NCBI RefSeq assembly: GCF_963921235.1 | Contig: NC_086097.1 | Coordinates: 146,012,001-146,076,000, forward strand | Reading direction: 5' to 3' | Source of the DNA: Mobula hypostoma | Lineage: Eukaryota | DNA: 64,000 bases | Shown here: piece by piece, positions 15,141-49,123 of the stretch | Numbering within the stretch: position 1 is the stretch's first letter | Layout of the letters: each line of letters begins with the position of its first letter | Made by a program: the position numbers and the translations under genes | Notes under the pieces: generated by a model | The model's database searches: none | What the model was told of the DNA's origin: nothing | The model's input: only the letters and a program-made list of their open reading frames with translations

Positions 15141-15504
15141 TTTTATTATAACTTCCTGGACTGTTGCCACAAAATCACAAGTTTCACGACTTACAGTCAG
15201 TCTGAAATAACAAACATGATTCTGATTCCGAGTTACTTCTTGCAGAAACTGAATGACTCCCAAATGTTGGCAGAGGCTATAGATTATCTGACCATATATT
15301 AGTTTTCAGACAAGGTAGTGCAGACAGGCCATCTCAATTCAAATGAGATGCCCATCAAATTACCATGCGCCTTCTAGAAAGGTTGCCAGTGCAAGTTTTG
15401 GGCTGGCATGAGGGGGAGGGTAAGACGAATATGTAGTAAATGCCTGACATTTGGAGTGCACTGGGACTATGGCCTTTGCATTTTCAGGGTATGAAGCAAC
15501 TGGT

Positions 15505-16780
15505 CTACAGCAGGTGCCATCTCATTGGCTCTTTACTCAACCCTGGAACATCTGGACAGCAAAGATGAAATACATCAGGGTGTCCTCTATCGATTATAGC
15601 TCGACATTTAATACCATCATCCCCTTAAAACTAATCAGTAAACTGGGCCTCAGTACCCCCTTATGCAATTGGATCCTGGACTTACTCACTTGTAGACCTC
15701 AGTCAGTTCGGATTGGCAAAAACATCTCCTCCACTATCTCCATCAGCACAGGAGCTCCACAGGGATGTGTGCTTAGCCTCTTGCTCTACTCCTTTGCACC
15801 CATGACTGTGTGGCTAAACACAGCTCCAAAGCCATATACAAGTTTGCTGATAACACCACTGTTGTGGGCCATATCAAAGTTGGTGATGAATCAGCGTAGA
15901 GGAGGGAGATTGAAAATTCGGCTGAATGATGTAATAACAACAACCGCTCACTCAATGTCAGTAAGACCAAGGAACTGATAGCAAATTTCAGGAGAGGGAA
16001 ACCTAAAGTCTATGAGCCGGTACTCATTGAAGGATCACAGGAGGAGAGAGTCAGTAATTTTAAATTCCCGGCTGTCGCTATCTTAGAGGACCTGTCCTGG
16101 ATGCATCATATAAATGCAATTGCAAAGAAAGCATAACAGTGCCTCTACTTCCTTAGGAGTCTGCAGAGATTCAGCATGTCATCAAAAACTTGGCAAACTT
16201 CTACAGATGTGTGGCGTAAAGTATGGTGACTGGCTGGATTCTGGCCTGGTATAGGAACATCAATACCTTTGAGTGGAAAATCCTAAGAAAGGTAGTGGAT
16301 TTGGCCCAGTATATCACGGATAAAGCCCTCCCAACTATTGAGCACATCTCTATGAAACGTTGCTGTAGAAAAGCAGCATCCATTATCAAAGATCCTTAGC
16401 ACTCAGGCCATGCTCTTTTCTCACTGCTATCATCTGGTAGAAGGTACAAGTGCCTTAGGACTGGCACCACCAGGTTCAAGAACACTCATTATCCCTCAAC
16501 CATCAGGTTCTTGAACAAAAGCGGATAACTATACTCATTCTATTTCCGGTGTTCCCAAACCGATGACCTCACTAAGGACTATTTATCTTGCTATTTCATT
16601 TTCGTTATTTATTGCTATTTATTTATATTTGCATTTGCACCAGCTTGTTGTTCATTGATCCTGTTTACAGTTTTTGTTCTACAGATTTGTTGAGTACACC
16701 ACAGGGAAAAAAATGTCAGTGTTGTATGTCCTGACAAGTATGTACTCTGATAATAAATGTTACTTTGAACTTTGAACTGT
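15505..16780 (+). mobile_element. Rex1/Babar-type LINE, 5'-truncated
   Basis: [42 protein letters not shown]; (ttgaac)n tail at ~16765-16778. Confidence 0.85.
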
Positions 16781-17980
16781 GAAATTTATTCATGCAGGAT
16801 ACATTCCCCTCCTGATAAAACAGCACGATGTACAATATATTATAAGCATTCTTGCTATCATTTATGTAAATTCTGCTCCCTGCATCTGTCTCATTTGGAT
16901 GGGGAGAAAAACTGCTCAGGTGGAAGTATTGATCGTGAACAAGAAATATGTTAAACAGGAAATAGAAAAAGTACAAATATATCTGAGTGAATATTAAAGG
17001 GAATAACCAAAAGCTTAGGATTCCTAGGACTCTGGGAGTCTAAGAAGGTTGAAATAAACTGCATTTACAAGTTAAATAATTATTTATAGGGAATATAATA
17101 AAGTAAAAAAATCAAAACAAATGTATGGAGGCAGAATTATCATAGAAAAGAAGATTAAAAGAAAATTAATGAATTTTGAATTGGTATTTAATTTATTATA
17201 TTCACATACAAAAGTACAGTGATAAACATGGCTTCTATTCAGATTATTTCACAGTATCAGTACATTGTACTAGTACAAGGGAAAAACAACAACCAGAACA
17301 CAAAATACGGTATTACTGTTACAGAAAAATACAGTGCAGGCATTCATTGAAGTGCATGGCTAAGACAATGTCGACTGCAAGGTCAAGGGTCCATTTTATT
17401 GTGCAATAAGACTATTCAATTGTCTCATAACAGTGGGATAGAAGCTGTCCTTGATTTGAAGATAAATAAAAAACATTGCATTGAAATAAGAAAATACTCA
17501 TGTGGAATGAAGTGTTCAGTTTTGTGGAAGCCCAAGAGAAGCGCATGTAACCCTCTCACCGGGACTTGTACACCAAATTGGCTCATTAGCTAACGTTGCT
17601 AACAGCCATGTGACTCACCAGTGAGAAGGCCACCTCTCATAAGCAACATATGTCTGGGGTCGGTATGATGTGGGGTTGAACCAAACAGAAACTACAAGAT
17701 ATTCTGATTAAAAGAACCTTGATCTGAGCAATTGCGTGTTAATACTGCCCAAACATAATTGTCATCCCAGAAATGACAGATCGTACTCCAGCATAAAATT
17801 ATAAAGAAAGTGTATTTACCAATTTGCAACTTTATCAAACAGGTAACTGAGAAAAAAAAAACAAGATAAAAGGACCCATTACAGTTAAACCAGTCTAAAT
17901 GTGCACATAAACTTTGGAGCTCATTTCTGTATTAGCTGAATGCATTGCTTTACTCACAGTGTTGAATTCTCATCACCCAC

Positions 17981-18209
17981 TGTGGTAAACCATGTATATA
18001 TGTTGTAACTCGGTTATCTGTCTGGACACACCCCTCTGCTGACTGTCCCTGTGGCTCCTCCCACAGGGTCCTATATAAAGGTGTTCGCCTTGCCCCTCCC
18101 CCTCAGTCCGGGGGCAGACACTCACTGTGGAGGTCGTATTGTACAGCGAATAAAAGCCTTTCAGTATTTTACCAAACCTCAGTCTTTTGGAGTAATTGAA
18201 GGTGCTTCA
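17981..18209 (+). repeat. 5' LTR
   Basis: TGTGG...CTTCA; TATATAAA at ~18072; AATAAA at 18149-18154. Confidence 0.97.
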
Positions 18210-18235
18210 ATTTTATTCGCTGTATGTTTTAAAAC

Positions 18236-19429
18236 ATGGAACAGGCTCTGAGACCAGAAAAATTAGACCTCGATCCGCAAATGCCTGACGCTGGAAACGC
18301 TTTCGAACTCTGGCTGGCCTGCTTCAAAGCGTATCTAGAGGAGATTAAAGCGACCGACCCTGTAGCAAAGCGCAGAGTTCTACTCTCCAGGGTCAGTCCA
18401 CGGGTTTATTCGCTAATCAGCGACCAGCCGAACTACGACGGCGCAATGAACGCACTCAAAAGACAATACCTGCGGCCGATAAAGAGCGTCTATGCTCGGC
18501 ATCGCTTAGCGACATGGCAACAACGTCCCGGGAAATCGAGTGCTGAGTTCGTCCAGGCCCTACAGACACTCGTGCGAGCCTGCAATTGCCAGGAGCTGAT
18601 GGCGGCGCAGCATGCAGAACTCCTAGTGAGGGACGCCTTCGTCACGGGGACCAGGTCAGTGTACGTGCACCAGGGGCTGCTGGAAAAAGCCTATCTTACC
18701 CTAAATTCGGCAATCGAGCTGGCTGATACGTTGGAGGCCGCTCTGCATAACTCCAAGGCTCTCCAGGCACACGATCCCCCGATGGCCTCGTGGGCGCCGC
18801 AGACCCCGCAACCTGCCGGCGAATCGACCTCGGCTGCCGCCAGTCGTGAGTCCGCGAAGTGTTACTTCTGCGGACTGGAGAAGCACCCCCGGAAACGCTG
18901 CGCGGCCCGACAAGCTACCTGTTCCAGCTGCGGAAAGAAGGGCCACTTCGCCAAGGTCTGTAAGTCAAAACCGCGAGCGGGATCGAGCAGTGCCGCGTGC
19001 GAGACGTGGGGGTCACCATCTTCCCTGCACACTGCCACCACGTGCGAGACATGGGGGCCGCCATCTTCCCTGCACGCCATCTTCCCTGCACACTGCCACC
19101 ACGTGCGAGACATGGGGGCCACCATCTTCCCTGCCGCCATCTTCCCTGCACACTGCCACCACGTGCGAGACATGGGGGCCACCATCTTCCCTGCTGCCAT
19201 CTTCCCTGCACGCCGCCACCACATGCGAGACATGGGGGTGGCCATCTTGGTCTGCGCCACCTCCCACCGCCTACGACCAACGGGTGCTCACGGGGCACCC
19301 CACCACGCTGGACCAAGACAGCGACCCCACCCTGGCTTCTGTGACCCTAGACCAAAACGCTCCCCACCAGCTCACAAGGTCAATGATGGACATCCTGATG
19401 GAGGGGCACAGGACAAGCTGCCTGTTTGA
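18236..19429 (+). pseudogene. gag: Gag with two Zn knuckles; true frame shifts at ~19074
   Basis: CYFCGLEKHPRKRC and CSSCGKKGHFAKVC (CCHC); one extra A in one repeat unit at 19074 moves the protease into another frame. Confidence 0.9.
18994..19250 (+). repeat. 45/60-bp coding tandem repeat in the Gag-protease linker
   Basis: 19081-19140 and 19141-19200 are near-identical; encodes (TCETWGPPSSLPPSSLHTAT)n. Confidence 0.92.
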
Positions 19430-19496
19430 CACAGGCAGCACGGAGAGTTTTATCCACCCGGCCACGGTGCAGCATTGTGGACTCATGATACGATGA
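19075..19496 (+). pseudogene. Linker + aspartic protease
   Basis: CLFDTGSTESFI (DTG catalytic motif); frameshifted by an 8-bp duplication ATGATACG x2 at 19485-19500. Confidence 0.88.
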
Positions 19497-21151
19497 TACG
19501 GCCGGTAAGTCGGAGGGTCTCCATGGCCTCCAGGTTGCATACAACAGACATCCGGGGGGGGGGTTGTGTAGCGACACTAGTGGTGCAGGGCACAGAATAT
19601 CGGGACTTTACGTTACTGGTCTTGCCTGAACTGTGTGCCCCTGTGCTGTTGGGGTTGGACTTCCAGAGCCACCTGAAAAGCGTGACAATGAAGTATGATG
19701 GGCCCCTCCCGCCAATTACTGTCATAAATCCCCTGTTTTGTAGAGATATGTCACGTACCCCGCTACTGACCACACACACACACCGACCCGCACATCCCAC
19801 CCAACATCATGCCAACTGCCACACTTCCGACCCCACTTGCGGCCTCTCCACCCTCGGGATCCCTCCCCCACCGCTGTTTGCCAACCTGACCCCCGACTAT
19901 AAACCTGTGGCAACTAAAAGCAGGAGGTACAGCGCGGGGGACAGAACCTTCATTAAGTCGGAGGTGCAGCGTCTGCTCAGGGAGGTGGTCATTGAAGCAA
20001 GCACAAGTCCTTGGAGGGCGCAGGTGGTGGTTGTTCGGAACGGGGAGAAGAATAGGATGGTCGTGGACTATAGCCAGACCATCAATAGGTTCAAGCAGCT
20101 CGACGCGTACCCTCTACCCCGCATCGCGGATATGGTCAATCAGATAGCACAGTACAAGGTGTACTCGACCATAGACCTAAAATCCGCTTACCATCAGCTC
20201 CCCATCTGCCAGGAGGACCGCCCTTACACTGCCTTCGAGGCGGACGGCAGGCTTTATCAATTCCTGCGCGTCCCCTTTGGTGTCACGAATGGTGTATCTG
20301 TCTTCCAGAGGGCAATGGACCGGATGGTGGACCAGTGCCAACTGAAGGCCACGTTCCCATATCTGGATAACATCACCATCTGCGGTCACGACCAGCAGGA
20401 TCACGACAACAACCTCCAAAAATTTCTCCAAGCGGCCAAATCTTTCAACCTCACCTATAACAAGGACAAGTGTGTATTTGGGACCACCCGACTTGCTATC
20501 CTTGGGTGTGTCGTGGAGAATGGAGTCATTGGCCCTGACCCCGACCGTATGCGCCCCTTGTTGGAACTCCCTCTTCCCAATACCCTCAGAGCCCTCAAAA
20601 GGTGTCTGGGCTTCTTTTCATATTACGCCCAATGGGGTAATAATGCAGACAAGGCCCGCCCCCTGGTCAAGGCCACCACATTCCCCCTCTCTGCCGAGGC
20701 CCACACGGCCTTCAACCGCATAAAAGGGGACATTGCCAAAGCAGCAATGCATGCGGTGGATGAGGCCATTCCCTTCCAAGTAGAGAGTGACGCCTCCAAC
20801 TTTGCGCTGGCTGCTACCCTCAACCAGGCAGGAAGACCAGTAGCGTTCTTCTCCCGTACCCTTCAAGGCCCTGAAATTCGGCACTCTGCAGTAGAGAAAG
20901 AGGCCCAGGCCATAGTGGAAGCTATAAGGCACTGGAGGCACTATCTTGCCGGGAAAAGGTTCACCCTGCTAACTGACCAGCACTCAGTCGCACTCATGTT
21001 TAATAATCAGCAGCGGAGCAAAATCAAAAATGATAAAATTCTGAGGTGGAGAATCGAACTCTCCACCTACAACTATGACATCATGTACAGGCCTGGGAAG
21101 CTCAACGAGCCCTCCGATGCCCTATCCCGGGGAACATGCGCCAGCGCGTAG
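19475..21151 (+). pseudogene. pol: Pol: protease C-terminus, reverse transcriptase and RNase H
   Basis: SPWRAQVVVV, RMVVDY, DAYPLP, IDLKSAYHQ, VPFGVTN, YLDN, ESDASNFALAA, EKEAQAIV, TDQHS, DALSR; premature TAG at 21149-21151. Confidence 0.95.
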
Positions 21152-22265
21152 ATCGACCGGCTATACGCCCTACATGTAGACCTTTGCCACCCGGAAGTCA
21201 CCCGGCTTTTCCACTTCGTGAAAGCCCGGAACCTGCTTTACTACTTGAGGAGATCAGGATGATGACCAGGGACTGCCAAGTCTGCGCAGAGTGCAAACCG
21301 CACTTCTACCGACCCGAAAAGGCACCACTCATCAAGGCCACCTGCCCCTTTGAGCGACTGAGTGTTGACTTTAAGGGCCCCCTTCCCTCCACCGACCGCA
21401 ATGTGTACTTTCTTAACGTAATTGATGAGTACTCGCGGTTCCCCTTCGCCATCCCCTGCCCCGACACCACTACCGCGTCAGTTATAAAAGCCCTGCACAA
21501 GCTCTTCACTCTGTTCAGATACCCATGCTATATCAGAGGGTCCTCGTTTATGAGTGACGAGCTGCGTCAATATCTACTGCCTAGGGGAATTTCAACCAGT
21601 AGGACCACGAGCTATAATCCCGGGGGAATGAACAGGTAGAGAAGGAGAATGGCACAGTGTGGAAAGCCACACTCTTAGCCCTCAGGTCAAAGGGACTGCC
21701 GGTCTCCCGCTGGCAGGAGGTCCTTCCCGAGGCACTCCACTCCATCCGCTCCCTGTTATGCACGTCCACCAATGCCACCCCTCATGAGCGGCTCTTTTCT
21801 TTTCCCAGAAAATCGACCACTGGAACCACCCTACCATCTTGGCTGACGTCCCCGGGGCCAGTGCTGCTCCGGAAACATGCGAGGAGCAATAAATACTCCC
21901 CGATAGTCGAGAGGGTTCACTTACTTCATGCGAACCCCCAGTATGCCTACGTGGTTTTACCTGATGGGCGGGAGGACACGGTCTCCATCCGTGACCTGGC
22001 ACCCGCAGGAGCTCCGGGCCCCTACGCTGAACACTCCTTGGTGACTATTGACCTCGTACCCACCAATGTATGTACCTACGAGACACCGTGCACCCCAAAC
22101 CCTATACAGATACCACACGACACTCCCATACCGGGCGCGACGCACACGCACAAGGGATTACCGACGCCTAACGTGCTGGCACCTGAAGTCAGGCCGGAGC
22201 CAGCACAACCGCCATCGCCGGTGCAATCACTACCGGTGCTACGTAGGTCACAGCGACGGACTTGA
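21152..22265 (+). pseudogene. Integrase, in frameshifted pieces
   Basis: H..LCH...CQVCAEC zinc motif, SVDFKGP, IDEYSRFPFA, RGSSFMS, TTSYNP, W..VLPEALHSIR. Confidence 0.9.
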
Positions 22266-22337
22266 CCGCCTGATAGACTTAACCTGTAAATATACTTGTA
22301 AATATTGTCAGTCACTTCACCCCACGGGACTCTTTTT

Positions 22338-22355
22338 AAAAAAAGGAGGGGTGAA
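22338..22355 (+). other. Polypurine tract (plus-strand primer)
   Basis: AAAAAAAGGAGGGGTGAA immediately before the 3' LTR. Confidence 0.85.
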
Positions 22356-22584
22356 TGTGGTAAACCATGTATATATGTTGTAACTCGGTTACCTGTCTGG
22401 ACACACCCCTCTGCTGACTGTCCCTGTGGCTCCTCCCACAGAATCCTGTATAAAGGTGTTTGCCTTGCCCCTCCCCCTCAGTCCGGGGGCAGACACTCAC
22501 TGTGGAGGTCGTATTGTACAGCGATTAAAAGCCTTTCAGTATTTTACCAAACCTCAGTCTTTTGGAGTAATTGAAGGTGCTTCA
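22356..22584 (+). repeat. 3' LTR
   Basis: 223/229 identical to the 5' LTR by manual comparison. Confidence 0.97.
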
Positions 22585-24535: not shown

Positions 24536-26540
24536 TTCAAAAGTCAAAAGTAAATTTATTAACAAAGTCCATATATGTCACCATATACAACTCTGAGATT
24601 AATTTTATGATGGGCACTCACAGTAAATACAAAGAAACATAACAGAATCAATGAAAAATCACACACAAGATAGACCAATAACCAATGTGCAAAATACGAC
24701 AAACTGTGCAAAAACAAAATAAACAATAAAAATAAATGAATAAGGAATAAATATCAAGAACATAAGATGAAGCATCCTTGAAAGTGAGTACACTGGTTCC
24801 GTGTTAGGGCGAGTGAAGTTATTCCCTTTGGTTCAAGAGCCTGATGGTTGAGAGGTAATAACGGTTCCTGAACCTGGTGATGTGGGTCCTGAGGCTCCTG
24901 TACCTCCATGGCATGAAGAGAGCATGGCCTGTATAGTGGTTGCCCTTGATAATGGATACAGCTTTCCGGTGACATCACTCCTCGTAAATGTGCTAAATGG
25001 CAGGGAGGGCATTACCCATGATGGACTGGGCTGTATCCACTACTTTTTGTAGGCTTTGACATTCAAGGGAATTGGTGTTTCCATACCAGGCCATGATGGA
25101 ACTAGTCAGTATACTCTCCACCACATATCTATAGAAATTTGTCATAGTTTTAGGTGATGTGCTGAATCTTCACAAACTTCTCAGAAAGTAGAGGTACTGC
25201 CGTGCTTTCTTTACAATTGCACTTGTCTGCTGGACCCAGGTCAGATCCTCTGAAATGATGATGCCAAGCAATTTCTCCATCTCTGATCCCCCTGATGAGG
25301 ACTGGCTCATGGACCTCCAGTTTCCTCCTTGTGTAGTCAATAATCAGCTCCTATCCCTCCTATATGCTGATTTGTCACCATTTTTCATTTGGCCAATAAC
25401 AGCGGTGTTGTCAACAAATTGAAATATGGAATTGTGGCTGTGCTCAGCCTCACATTCACAAGTATAAAGCGTGTAGAGCAGGGAACTAAACAGACAGCCT
25501 TGTGGTGCACATGTGCTGATGGTGATTGTGGACGAGATGTAGTTGCCAAGCTGAACTGACTGGGGTCTGCAAGTGAGGAAATTGAGGATCCAGTTGCACA
25601 GGAAGGTACTGAGCTCTTGCAGCTTATCGATTAGTTTTGAGGGAATCATACATGCAGAGCTGTTGTCAATGAAGAGCATTCTGATGTATGCATCTTCACA
25701 GATGTTCCAGGGTTGAGAGAAGAGCCAATGAGATACCATCTGCTCCGGCAGGCAAACTGGAGCAGATCCAAGTTGCTCCTCAGTCAGGAGTTGATATGTT
25801 CTATCACCAGCCTCTCAAAATCCTTCATTACTGTGGATGTAAGGGTTACTGGACGAGGCAGGTTACTATGTTCTTCTTAGGCACCAGTATACTTGAAGCC
25901 TGCTTGAAGCAGGTGGATACCTCAGACTGCCAAAGCGAGAGGTTAAAGATCTCAGTGAACACTCCAGCCAGTTGATCAGTGCAGGTCTTCAGTACTCAGC
26001 CGGATACGTATCTGGGCCAGATGGTTCCTTGGGTTCACCCTCCTGAAGACTGCTTGTATGTCGGCCTCAAAGACTGAAATCACAGGGTCATCCAGGTCTG
26101 TTGGAGTTTGTGAAGGCACCTCTATGTTTTGTTGGTTGTTGGGTAGAAAAGGCATTGGTTGTTGGGTAGAAAGGGCATCTGAGAGCAAAACTTTGTTGTC
26201 ACATACGTCGCTTTGTTTTACCTTGTTGGAGGTAATAGTATTTGAGCATCCATCTGTGATTCCAGTTTGGTCCAGAATTGCAACTTCGCACGTGAAATGG
26301 CTTTCTGGAGGTCATAGCAGAATCTCTTGTACTTTAATTGGTCGCCAGAGCTGAACACCACTAATATGGCCCCCAGCAGATTGAGGATCTCCAGGTTCAT
26401 CCGGGGTTTCTGGTTGAGGAAGACACTGAATGATTTTGTTGGGTTACACTTATCCACGACTGACTTCATCCATGACAACTATGGCGTATTCATTTAGATC
26501 CTCTGATGCCTGGTGGAACTTTCTGCCAGCATTGCAGAGT
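24536..26540 (-). mobile_element. Rex1/Babar-type LINE, degraded
   Basis: [41 protein letters not shown]; (ttgaa/ttgac) tail near 24536. Confidence 0.8.
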
Positions 26541-27148: not shown

Positions 27149-30100
27149 GATAGATAGATACTTTATTGATCCCAAAGGAAATTACAGCGTCACAGTTGCA
27201 TTACAAGTGCACAGTTATAAATATTAGAAGGGAAGTAGAAAGAATAAAAAATAAGTTATGACAAACAATCTAACAGGAGGGGGGGTCATCACTTCTCTGG
27301 CTATAGGTTGACTCACTATAGAGCCTAGCGGCTGAGGTTAAGAATGACCTCATATGGCATTCTTTGGAGCAGTGTTGTTGTCTTCATTTATTAATAAAGA
27401 TGCTCCTCTGTTCAGCTAAGGTGGCACGCAGAGGGTGAGAAACATTGTCCAGAATTGCCAGGATTTTCCATAGTGTCCTTTGTTCTACCACAGCCTTCAG
27501 TATGTCCAGTTTAACTCCTATAGCAGAGTCAGCCTTTCTAATCAGTTTATTGAGCCTGTTGGCATCAGCTGTTTTGATTCCATTGCCCCAGCACATCGCC
27601 GTAGATTGTACTGGCAACAACAGACTGGTAGAATGTGTGAAGGAGAGGACTGCATACTCCAAAGGGCCTCGGTCTCCACAAGAAGTACAGGCCTTCTCAT
27701 ACATAGCCTACATTCTCTGTGTTGGTGTTCTACTCAAGTCTGTCATCCAGGTGCACTCCTCACCACATCCATGTCCTCACCATCAATAGTAACAGGGAGC
27801 AATCAAGGCTTAGTCTTCCTAAAGTCCATCACCACCTCCTTTGTCTTACTGATATTGAGCTGCAGATGATTCAGCTTGCACCATCTGGCAAAGTCCTCCA
27901 CCAGGGCCCTGTATTCATCCTCCTGTCCTCCCTTTACAGTATACACCCAACTACTGCTGAGTCATCAGAGAATTTCTGCAGCTGACATGATTCAGTGTTG
28001 GATCTGAAGGTATACAGCATAAACAGGAAGGGAGCCAATACATTCCCTTATAGCCATGTCTGACACACAGTTCTGAAGCCACACAAGCCGTGCTCTGCCA
28101 GTCAGGTAATCCATTACCCAGGATACAATAGAAGTGTCTACCAGCATTGAGTGGAGCATTTCCCCCAACAGTGAGGGCTGTATGGTATTGAAGGCATTTG
28201 AGAAATTAAAAAACAGGATCCTTACAGTGCTGCCCTGATTATCCAGATGGGAGTAGGCTCTGTTCAGCAGGTAGATGACAACATCGTCGACTCCAATGTA
28301 CTCCTTATAGGCATACTGCAGGGGATCTAGGGTTGATCTGACCAGGGGTTAGAGGTGAGCCAGGACCAGCCTCTCTAGGGTCTTTATGATGTGTGAGGTC
28401 AGGGCCACTGGACTGTAGGCATTCAAGACTTTCGATTGACCCTTTTTGGGTACTGAGACCATACACGTGATGTTTTCCACAGTCAGGACCCTTTCCAGGC
28501 TGAGACTCAGATTGAAAATGCACTGGAGAACTCCACATGGCTGCTCAGCACACTCCTTCAGGACCTTGGGGTTCACACCATTTGGTCTCAATGCTTTGCT
28601 GTGTCTGAGTTTCCCCAGATATCCCTTCTCATCAGCTCATCAGGATGTAGTGAAAGTGAGTCCATGATGACTGAGGACTTGATGGAAGGTGGGAGTCGGG
28701 GAAGATTGGGATGATAGCAGTTGGTATGTGGAGGTGTGAATGATAGGTGCAGGGCAAGGAAGGGATGTAGAGAGTGGGTGCCTGTGTTATTTATCTGCGT
28801 GTTGAATTGGAGGTGGGAGGAGGGAGGAAAGTGTTAGTGCTGAGGGAGCATGTGTGCCTCTGCACCTGGACTGGTGTGCTGAGGGGAGTGTGAACAGGAG
28901 GGCAATTGTCAAACCTATTGACGAATTGATTTAACTCATTAACCCATTTGTGGCTGCATTCCAAGGCTCTACAGCTAGGCTCATTCTTCATGCCTCTCCA
29001 CACCTCCTATCTGCTACTCTGCCCAAGCTCTCTCTCTCTCCTGTATTCCTCTTCAGCCACCTTGATCTTCTCCTTAAGCTCCCTCTGTACGTTTCAATTT
29101 CTCCAAGTCTCCTGATCTAAAGGCTCTCTTTTTGTGGTTGAGAAGAGCCTTCAGATCACTGGTGATGCATGGTTTGTTGCCAGGGAAGCAGTGAATAGTC
29201 ATTGATGGTATTACAGCATCTACACAGAAGCTGATGTAGCCAGTGATGCAATCAGTAAGTCCGTTAATGTCCTCCCCATATGGCTCACAAAGCACATTCC
29301 AGTCAGTAACCTCAAAGCAGCCACTCAAGGCCTCGGTGGTCTCTGGAAGCCATCTCTTTACTATCCTGGTGGTAGCTAGCTGTTGCTGTACTTTGGGTTT
29401 ATAAGACCATAAGACCATAAGACAAAGGAGCAGAAGTCGGCCATTCGGCCCATCGAGTCTACTCCGCCATTTTATCATGAGCTGATCCATTCTCCCATTT
29501 AGTCCCACTCCCCTGCCTTCTCACCATAACCTTTGATACCTATCAATCTCTGCCTTAAATACATCCAATGACTTGGCCTCCACTGCTGCCCGTGGCAACA
29601 AATTCCATAGATTCACCACCCTCTGACTAAAAAAATTTCTTCGCATTTCTGTTCTGAATGGGCACCCTTCAATCCTCAAGTCATGCCCTCTCGTACTAGA
29701 CTTCCCCATCATGGGAAACAACTTTGCCACATCCACTCTGCCCATGCCTTTCAACATTCGAAATGTTTCTATGAGGTCTTCTCTCATTCTTCTAAACTCC
29801 AAGGAATACAGTCCAAGAGCGGACAAACATTCCTCATATGTTAACCCTCTCATTCCCGGAATCATTCTAGTGAATCTTCTCTGTACCCTCTCCAACGTCA
29901 GCACATCCTTTCTTAAATAAGGAGACCAAAACTGCCCACAGTACTCCAAGTGAGGTCTCACCAGTGCCTTATAGAGCCTCAACATCACATCCCTGCTCCT
30001 ATACTCTATTCCTCCAGAAATTAATGCCAACATTGCATTCGCCTTCTTTACTACTGACTCAACCTGGAGGTTAACCTTAAGGGTATCCTGTATGAGGACT

Positions 30101-47738: not shown

Positions 47739-49123
47739 TGTTACAGGGGAGCGTAGGAAAGCGGACCCAGGAGCAGAACACAGACGCGGAGGTAGCATTA
47801 ACAGAAATGTGTTTATTAATAGTTGCCAGGAAAGCCGGGGAGCGAGGATAGAATGCTTACGCGGACGAGGATGTGGGACAACATACAGGAGGAGCTCAGA
47901 CACGGAGCCTGGACTTGGACTTGGACTTGAACACAGAGCCTGGACTTGGACTCGGACTTGGACCTGAAGCCTGGACTTGGACTTGGACACAGAGCCTGGA
48001 CTTGGACTTGGACTCCAGCCTGAACTTGGACATGGACTTGGATACAGAGAGACAGAATACCCAACTTGGATTAGCGGCAAACAGCCGGACCTACTCAGCT
48101 GGAAACGAGGTGGCCAAACCAAACAACAACAGACAATCCGTATCTTGACATGGAGAAGCTCATGAAGCAGCTAACGGTTGGCAATCACTCAGCTGGATAT
48201 GAAGAGACAGAATTCCCAGCTTGGAGTAGTGGCAAATGGCCAGACCTACTCAGCTGGAAACAAGACAACTAAACCAACCAAAGACAGACAATACGAATCT
48301 TGACACGGAGTAGCTCATGAAGCGGCAAATGGCTGGCAATCCCTTAGCTGGACAGGATGAGACAGAATTCCCAACTTGGAGTAACGGCAAACGACCCGAC
48401 CTACTCAGCTGGAAGCAAGATGACTAACCCAACCAACAACTGACCATACAAATCTTGACATGGAGTAGCCCATGAAGTGACAAACAGTCAGCAATCACTT
48501 TGCTGGACACGAAGAGACAGAATTCCCAACTCGGAGTAGCAGCAAATGGCCAGACCTACTCAGCTGGAAATGAGATGACTAACCAACCAACGAATGGCAA
48601 TACGAATCTTGACACGGAGTAGCTCATGAAGTGGCAAAACGTCGGCAATCACTCAGCTGGACAAGAAGAGACAGAATTCCTAACTCAGAGTAGCGGCAAA
48701 CAGCCAGACGTACTCAGCTGGAAACGAGACGACAAAAACCAAACAATGACAATCCATTTGTATCTTGGCTCAGAGTGGCAGCAATCGGCCAGCAAATCTC
48801 AGCCGAATGTGAAAACGACAGAATTCGCATCTTGACTCGGAGTAGCGGCAAAATGGCCGGCAACTCAGCTGGACACGAAAATGACTGAGTTCACTAAGCA
48901 GCCACAGGCACCAAAGCAACTTAGAGTCCATGATTCTTGGTGGCTCCAGGATGAGCATAGCTACACTGGCTACGGTGACGAACCAACAGCGAGTAGATGT
49001 AAGCCGGAGTTTTTATGCTGCAAGTTCGAATGAGGATCAGGTGCCCTAATCAAGGAGCCCAGTGGAACACGGGGAAAAGGAAATTAACTGAAATGAGGAG
49101 TCAACGGACCAGACCGTGACACA
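47739..49123 (-). mobile_element. Solo LTR with an expanded internal tandem array (family of 3073-4025)
   Basis: TG...CA, perfect TSD CATTT (47734-47738 / 49124-49128); shares 'gtagcattaaca...gtttattaat' and 'ggagtcaacgg...gtgacaca' with 3073-4025. Confidence 0.88.
48049..48890. repeat. ~155-bp tandem repeat (4 full + partial copies), preceded by (GGACTT)n at 47908-48041
   Basis: 'gagacagaat' unit starts at ~48049, 48204, 48359, 48514, 48668. Confidence 0.9.

Follow-up and report, generated by a model that had tools for sequence, protein, structure and literature searches.

How does an LTR retrotransposon begin reverse transcription when the place just behind its 5' LTR, where complementarity to a host tRNA would be expected, holds instead the reverse complement of a piece of the LTR itself? 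The question is raised by an element in the window analysed here, a stretch of 64,000 nucleotides from the genome of Mobula hypostoma (contig NC_086097.1, positions 146,012,001 to 146,076,000 of the forward strand). An earlier note on this DNA had drawn attention to a 14-nt complementarity between the primer-binding site, or PBS, and the poly(A)-signal region of the LTR, and had proposed that it serves tRNA-independent priming with a geometry unlike that of the fission-yeast element Tf1, the hiding of the poly(A) signal in the 5' LTR, or both. I will argue that the locus represents a real, clade-wide variant of a known self-priming mechanism, and that self-priming of some form is very likely for this element.

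A primer binding site complementary to its own LTR

The element in the window is a decayed Ty3/gypsy LTR retrotransposon, with two TG...CA LTRs, a polypurine tract (PPT) and the order Gag, protease (PR), reverse transcriptase (RT), RNase H (RH) and integrase (IN) (Table 1). The Gag, Pol and IN frames are broken, the two LTRs differ at 6 of 229 nt, and the flanks, CCCAC and GCCAG, match at 3 of 5 positions. The catalytic motif of the RT (region 20358-20372) ends D-N, not D-D, in 15 of 23 aligned clade members including the window, while D-D is kept in 6 and the motif is damaged in 2; since D-N is common to distant members of the clade, it is not to be taken for decay. Between the Gag knuckles and the protease lie five copies of a 60-bp repeat (18969-19254), a place that relatives fill with other low-complexity repeats. 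Elsewhere in the window, the ORFs at 15469-15978, 25344-25739 and 27384-27704 resemble, and are presumably, fragments of LINE reverse transcriptase, and 48049-48736 holds four copies of a repeat with a period of 155 bp.

Table 1. Features of the Ty3/gypsy element, in positions of the window
Feature	Position	Strand	Remarks
5' LTR	17981..18209	+	229 nt, TG...CA; loose contig ends in sequencing runs at 17981 and 18209
TATA box	18072..18079	+	TATATAA at 18072; TATAAA at 18074, 31 nt before predicted +1
Initiator-like TCAGTCC	18103..18109	+	predicted transcription start A18105; four fold-back arms end at 18101-18106
Small predicted hairpin just 5' of partner	18117..18135	+	loop differs between subfamilies
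Partner (PBS-complementary segment)	18140..18155	+	putative 3' end of the self-primer; putative cut 18155/18156
AATAAA hexamer within partner	18149..18154	+	ATTAAA in the window's 3' LTR
Helix 2 (predicted)	18156..18203	+	18156-18161 pairs with 18198-18203; stacks on the primer duplex
Spacer A and PBS	18210..18226	+	PBS 18211-18226, complementary to partner; A18210 is the sole base between LTR and PBS
Gag ORF	18236..19429	+	two Cys/His knuckles; loses frame in the 60-bp repeat region
Protease end, RT (YLDN), RNase H	19493..21151	+	
Integrase remnant, broken frames	21152..22290	+	no chromodomain found at the C-terminus
Polypurine tract and 4-nt spacer	22338..22355	+	
3' LTR	22356..22584	+	second partner copy, without a PBS behind it

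The sequence at 18211-18224 is the exact reverse complement of 18142-18155, just as the earlier note had reported, and the positions that it gave for the PBS (one base past the LTR end), for AATAAA inside the LTR partner, for the TATA box and for the Gag ATG at 18236 agree with those found here. Matches to the LTR among 5000 random 25-mers drawn from the window went up to 12, none attaining 14. In the typical copy of the family the PBS continues with C and then A or G, giving 15 Watson-Crick pairs and one A-U or G.U pair, which makes a duplex of 16 bp for most copies; in the window copy, position 18225 carries a C>T change. Folded in silico, 18140-18226 reaches -29.6 kcal/mol (z=-6.0), with 0 of 200 shuffles as stable, and the suspected extension of the stem by its inner flanks also appears, the GCCTTT/GAAGGT helix forming in the predicted fold and stacking on the duplex.

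The complement is family-wide, the identical 14-nt PBS being present in 28 of the 30 best genomic copies (one has a point change and one was unparsed), and the family is large, with 2017 LTRs matching a 27-nt pattern across the partner. Exact 5-bp target duplications flank 22 of 35 two-LTR copies (from 40 stretches fetched), none being of 4 or 6 bp; TATAAA is the usual form among the 60 copies shown, with GAATAAA in some older ones. Two diverged Gag queries in the same genome led to the same family and to older subfamilies with partner and PBS unchanged, and the closest Gag proteins are those of myliobatiform rays.

The site does not begin like a tRNA complement: the PBS starts A-TTT in 28 of the 32 elements introduced below, not with the TGG... 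of a tRNA 3'-end complement, and the would-be primer has no CCA end. An Rfam scan of 17950-18300 returned nothing credible (best E=6.1, a chance hit). With A or C as its next base, the 15-mer is present at 72 places in the genome. Of the 30 inspected, 26 are LTRs, 2 are PBSs and 2 are unrelated, and ARAGORN calls no tRNA gene within 200 nt of any of the 30. The earlier note's view that no tRNA supplies this site stands, then, to the extent of the Rfam scan and of the 30 sites inspected among the 72.

Relatives across animals and covariation of the pairing

Relatives in the RT-RNase H region, at 47-85% identity, carry names that point to rays, hagfish, corals, a sea slug, flukes, a tapeworm, nematodes, spiders, insects and shrimp, and anemones are also among the named proteins of the clade, the host range being read from these protein names; for the long proteins the next matches beyond the clade lie at 35% identity or below, and no relative was found in the viral contigs searched. 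A metagenome scan yielded 80 loci, 31 of which have the Gag start at least 200 nt inside the locus and make up, together with the window, a set of 32 elements. CA|ATT stands just 5' of Gag in 28 of them and is absent in 4, and over 12 PBS bases the match to the element's own LTR is 12/12 in 17, 11 in 6, 10 in 1 and 8 or fewer in 4; in the low scorers L070 and L115 the duplex is broken by indels. Four further cases came from circularly assembled contigs, for which 28 loci were rescanned. PBS sequences differ between families while matching their own LTR, and with 23 of 32 elements agreeing at 11-12 of 12 bases, the covariation by which the earlier note proposed to judge the pairing is present across families.

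The pairing was then tabulated in 20 elements chosen for an intact duplex (a good Watson-Crick match at positions 1-12), which between them carry 19 different PBS 12-mers. Within this chosen set, positions 5-12 match the element's own partner at a mean of 7.85 of 8, against 4.09 for cross pairs; positions 1-13 hold 256 Watson-Crick pairs out of 260, with 1 G.U and 3 mismatches; and position 13, which lies outside the selection window, is paired in 20/20, while position 17 is paired in 2/20, a pattern that points to copying. Directly 3' of the partner a helix of 3-6 bp is predicted in 20/20, which is weak evidence given that the helix is short and the best of a search; it holds 15 G.U in 90 pairs, and its contrast with the duplex in this respect is inflated, the helix 2 search having allowed G.U and the duplex set having been picked for Watson-Crick pairs, two biases in opposite directions. 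The register is fixed, with CA|ATT after the LTR and A-A^R-C at the partner end in 16/16 families, and RC(C/T) follows directly 3' of the partner in all 16 families tallied, the partner end lying 20-68 nt before the LTR end across elements. Two close relatives bear on this: L065 and L069 share 98.2% identity over 4202 bp, and L065 has one transversion in both LTR partners together with the matching change in the PBS. Such a double change would be expected if the PBS were copied from the primer, though it would equally be kept by selection on the pair.

Two side observations concern the duplex. Its shortest form measures 13 bp, much the same as the distance of 11-13 nt between the cuts made by the RNase H of Ty3 and of CaMV (PMC11363490). 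At partner position -10 (window 18146) a G is paired with C in 19/20 elements although the neighbouring pairs vary freely, and this conserved G-C pair may position the enzyme.

As to the placement of the clade, RT-RNase H identity to chromodomain-bearing elements is about 28-31%. The chromodomain PF00385 was absent in 14 of 14 long in-clade proteins and also in the C-terminus of the window element and the three relatives rescanned; some chromoviruses have no chromodomain. In both quick trees (one of 99 rows) the clade stands with a support of 100 on a long stem, apart from the chromodomain-bearing rows, and an AU test did not reject a grouping with chromodomain-bearing elements (p=0.686; the tree constrained to join them was 5.6 log units better). 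The Mobula element works like the Tf1-type self-primers, and kinship with chromoviruses is compatible with the AU test. A candidate home, compared by description only, is the Mag lineage including Cigr-1: short LTRs, a compact gag-pol, two Gag knuckles and a 5-bp duplication are Mag-like, and the longest gag-pol frames, at about 1240-1290 codons, are of Cigr-1 size. Cigr-1, an element present in molluscs, is placed under Mag (PMC6238403), and in the literature examined, as far as its available text extends, there is no description of a self-complementary PBS for Mag or Cigr-1. The Saci2 and lennie elements of flatworms are also alike in being non-chromovirus Gypsy elements with a single gag-pol and a variable PBS, and a Spirometra protein falls inside the clade of the Mobula element; they differ in having 4-bp duplications and a tRNA-assigned PBS (PMC4558846, PMC12471100), where the Mobula element has 5 bp and a one-base spacer. 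The PBS of lennie is described as 8 bases to tRNA-Leu set 4 bases from the LTR (PMC4558846, PMC12471100), and the tapeworm Saci2 families as having variable PBSs assigned to different tRNAs (PMC12471100).

Fold-back insertions, and the probable RNA start and cut

Among the inspected 15-mer sites was L264, which runs from the LTR to the partner, continues with one base and then enters the reverse-complemented LTR, beginning with the LTR's 3' end; a partner:PBS duplex, when extended, makes just such a junction. Genome-wide there are 37 exact fold-back junctions (partner, T and reverse-complemented U5) against 2017 normal LTR junctions, about 2 per 100, and 57 when up to 3 mismatches are allowed, all of which were mapped; a reversed control pattern had no genomic match. 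Stand-alone palindromes of about 405 bp account for 31 of the 57 loci. At 8 loci the arm continues through U3 into the PPT and integrase, at 4 it stops short (at 18101, 18104-18105, 18106 and 18106), and the remainder are 12 more complex loci and 2 with only a 29-nt inversion; 45 of 55 mapped arms extend to the LTR start. In the palindromic mini-elements (L271, L274, L289, L312 and others) a single LTR is followed by one A and then by a U3-R arm in inverted orientation, so that both outer ends are U3 ends, a pair that the integrase accepts.

Target duplications accompany the 31 stand-alone palindromes (exact 5 bp in 21, 4/5 in 4, damaged or unscored in 6), which identifies the fold-backs as products of reverse transcription and integration and not as rearrangements of resident copies; the LTR flanks shown for the palindromes all differ, so that they look like separate insertions. 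That these fossils arose mainly because a resident element simply inverted the stretch between its partner and PBS was considered and rejected, because the fossils hold a second partner and U3, mostly have no PBS-gag behind the junction, and possess target duplications of their own. The palindromes are most simply understood as plus-strand strong-stop DNA whose PBS tail folded onto its own partner. They do not prove a covalent primer; the PBS tail must, however, have been templated by a primer that has the sequence of the partner, and no source for such a primer was found other than the element.

The arms that stop short bear on where the RNA begins. TATAAA at 18074 and TCAGTCC, assigned by the Initiator consensus, had given a predicted +1 at 18105 before the fossils were seen. 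Six arms end between 18000 and 18139, and four of the six do so at 18101-18106 (p about 2e-4 if ends were uniform); as these four lie within 4 nt of the predicted 18105, the RNA most likely starts 35 nt 5' of the partner. In two of the four, internal sequence and then a normal 3' LTR follow, and the target duplication is full or nearly so; the weakest, L330, lies against unrelated sequence, so that its end may reflect damage at a later time. Start-site-type junctions are rare among normal LTRs, and the four arms could come from a plus-strand tail annealing to uncut RNA. The contigs of four sequencing runs displayed neither a transcription start nor a poly(A) site.

For the cut, the clearest record is L313 (G000:C63 near 17928931), a defective element in which RT-region sequence is joined to U5 at 18155-18156 via 4 nt of microhomology, with repeats of RT-region sequence and U5 only at both ends together with a fold-back arm; a strong-stop DNA that ended at the cut would be expected to give such a junction. 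Two further loci are consistent with mis-transfer at the cut site and ambiguous, L342 (9 nt of homology, 18150-18158) and L336. A genome-wide breakpoint search counted 6 events at the cut site (4 small indels and 2 joins with internal sequence), 2 at the start site (1 known arm and 1 deletion) and 1 at a U3 control, too few for a rate. From one clear and two ambiguous mis-transfers I infer a cut between 18155 and 18156; on RNase H as the putative cutting enzyme, the conserved A-A^R-C and the L313 junction bear indirectly.

Possible routes of priming and their meaning

In Tf1 the RNA's first 11 bases pair to the PBS and RNase H cleaves between bases 11 and 12 (PMC7175516). The Mobula element resembles Tf1 and Tf2 of Schizosaccharomyces pombe and Tj1 of S. 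japonicus in having a PBS that complements its own 5' LTR with no tRNA (PMC7175516, PMC4600332), and also in an adjacent U5 helix, here a predicted one, and a primer that would be copied into the PBS tail (PMC7175516, PMC4600332, PMC11042837). Unlike Tf1, its pairing spans 13-16 nt and apparently involves +36 to +51, not the RNA's first 11 bases, its partner ends in an A-run and often in a poly(A) hexamer, and its PBS lies one base from the LTR. Tf1-like self-priming has been proposed for Tj1, for the Tf1/sushi and Tcn1 chromoviruses and for TAR (Houba/Osr-1) Copia elements (PMC4600332, PMC6317226), and a published prediction rule for self-priming (at least 10 bp of PBS-LTR complement, 0-5 bp after the LTR; PMC6317226) takes in the Mobula element as well; the predicted self-primers in the available text are fungal, plant or vertebrate chromoviruses or plant Copia elements, whereas the Mobula element belongs to a long-stem animal Gypsy clade. 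The proposal of tRNA-independent priming with a geometry unlike Tf1 is thus supported by the covarying families, the lack of a tRNA or Rfam source among the sequences inspected and the fold-back insertions.

With the complement, its covariation, its register and the integrated junctions as the observed framework, the following cycle may be proposed. Transcription would start at about 18105, where the TATA/Inr motifs and the four fossil arms point, and 18140-18155 would pair with the complementary 18211-18226, the duplex stacking on helix 2 in the predicted fold. The RNA would be cut between A18155 and G18156, probably by the element's own RNase H as in Tf1, and the 3'-OH of the 51-nt 5' piece would be extended over A18210 and U5 to 18156, after which the short DNA would jump to the 3' repeat by way of the short repeat behind the cut. 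Plus-strand synthesis would copy the primer and rewrite the PBS from the partner, keeping the match perfect, and the plus-strand PBS tail could anneal to any partner copy, which would account for the palindromic by-products present in the genome; in Tf1 about half of the cDNA keeps the reverse-transcribed PBS tail (PMC11042837). That the primer is this 51-nt 5' piece of the element's own RNA, cut after AAUAAAA, is a reading that I consider probable from the sequences compared. Such a primer would leave a 35-nt unpaired tail, which normal replication must trim or stop before. Considerably broader is the picture in which a widespread animal Gypsy clade primes with an internal, capped leader piece of about 51 nt cut behind the poly(A) hexamer, one sequence acting as primer at the 5' end and as poly(A) signal at the 3' end, the primer rewriting the PBS in each cycle, the by-products being integrated 405-bp palindromes that record start, cut and priming junction, and the whole having an origin apart from Tf1-type priming; taken jointly, these points are put forward tentatively, at somewhat less than even confidence.

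The fold-back arms themselves suggest a different partner, since the 45 of 55 arms reaching the LTR start and the 8 loci running into PPT and integrase fit a DNA-level fold-back, or priming by the 3' copy, better than they fit the 5' fragment. If a cut, or trimming after the A-run, were to expose the 3' repeat's partner, and this paired with the PBS, looped the RNA and primed, arms running through U3 would be explained (8 of 57 loci), as would the exact ending of most others at the U3 start, where a PPT cut would leave an RNA end, and the partner does end at a poly(A) hexamer, near the RNA 3' end. Yet four arms start at the predicted RNA 5' end, L313 would need a template break at 18155-18156 in the 5' LTR, the 5' partner, only 55 nt from the PBS, wins in the predicted fold, and the long arms are also explained by a plus-strand tail on a second RNA or on finished DNA; priming by the 3' copy is therefore unlikely, if deserving of attention. 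The 5' piece might, on the other hand, be shorter, as in the plain geometry of Tf1, with the RNA starting at or near the partner (18140-18145) and its first 11-16 bases acting as primer. Complementarity does end sharply after 13-16 nt, as if a whole primer had been copied, and several invertebrate partners, read with the Initiator motif, are Initiator-like with A at -11 (A there in 16/20). In most of the clade's invertebrate LTRs no TATA is seen, and alternative starts occur in Tf2 (PMC5341516). In the Mobula family, however, TATAAA lies 31 nt before 18105 and none lies 30 nt before the partner, fossil arms reach 18101-18106, and a start at -11 would leave the perfect pairing at positions 12-13 unexplained, which makes this geometry quite improbable here; it may hold for other families of the clade.

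Two readings dispense with self-priming altogether. The earlier note had suggested that the duplex hides AATAAA in the 5' LTR against early polyadenylation, and the hexamer indeed lies inside the duplex, is predicted to be unpaired once the PBS is removed from the fold, and is followed 3' by a U/GU-rich stretch at 18182-18190. AATAAA or ATTAAA stands at the partner end in 10/20 elements, against other hexamers in 10/20 and a duplex in all 20 (its intactness being what they were chosen for), and in L064 AATAAA lies 3' of the partner. Because the canonical hexamer is present in only 10/20, masking is possible but the weaker of the note's two suggestions, at most secondary, and may be a side benefit beside priming; as the sole role of the duplex, with something else doing the priming, it is very improbable, as no other primer site stands behind the LTR in any family examined and neither the fixed CA|A-TTT register nor the near absence of G.U is needed for masking. 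Half-tRNA primers do occur in plant Copia groups (PMC6317226), and a host tRNA fragment or small host RNA could in principle match the PBS by chance, but beyond the missing CCA end, the empty Rfam scan and the lack of tRNA genes near the 30 inspected sites, this would call for as many as 19 different RNAs of the host, every one of them with a further copy in the LTR of the element concerned, and is hardly credible.

Priming from the element's own RNA thus remains the preferred reading, and the literature examined holds no description of self-priming in this clade nor of such palindromic insertions, while older subscription papers and Repbase entries could hold either. In the available text of the sources cited here, the only experimental demonstration of self-priming is that for the fission-yeast Tf1, with predictions for chromoviruses and a single lineage of Copia. 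A large clade in animals, self-primed in a geometry of its own, would broaden what is known of it, and would bear on the open question of whether hairpin priming preceded tRNA priming (PMC3601003). Self-primed elements would escape tRNA-fragment silencing at the PBS and would also be missed by annotation based on the PBS. Furthermore, the fold-backs constitute a distinct class of short palindromic insertion, at some 2 per 100 normal LTR junctions in Mobula hypostoma, and through them the mechanism can be put to the test with nothing but genome sequence, in whichever species the clade is present.
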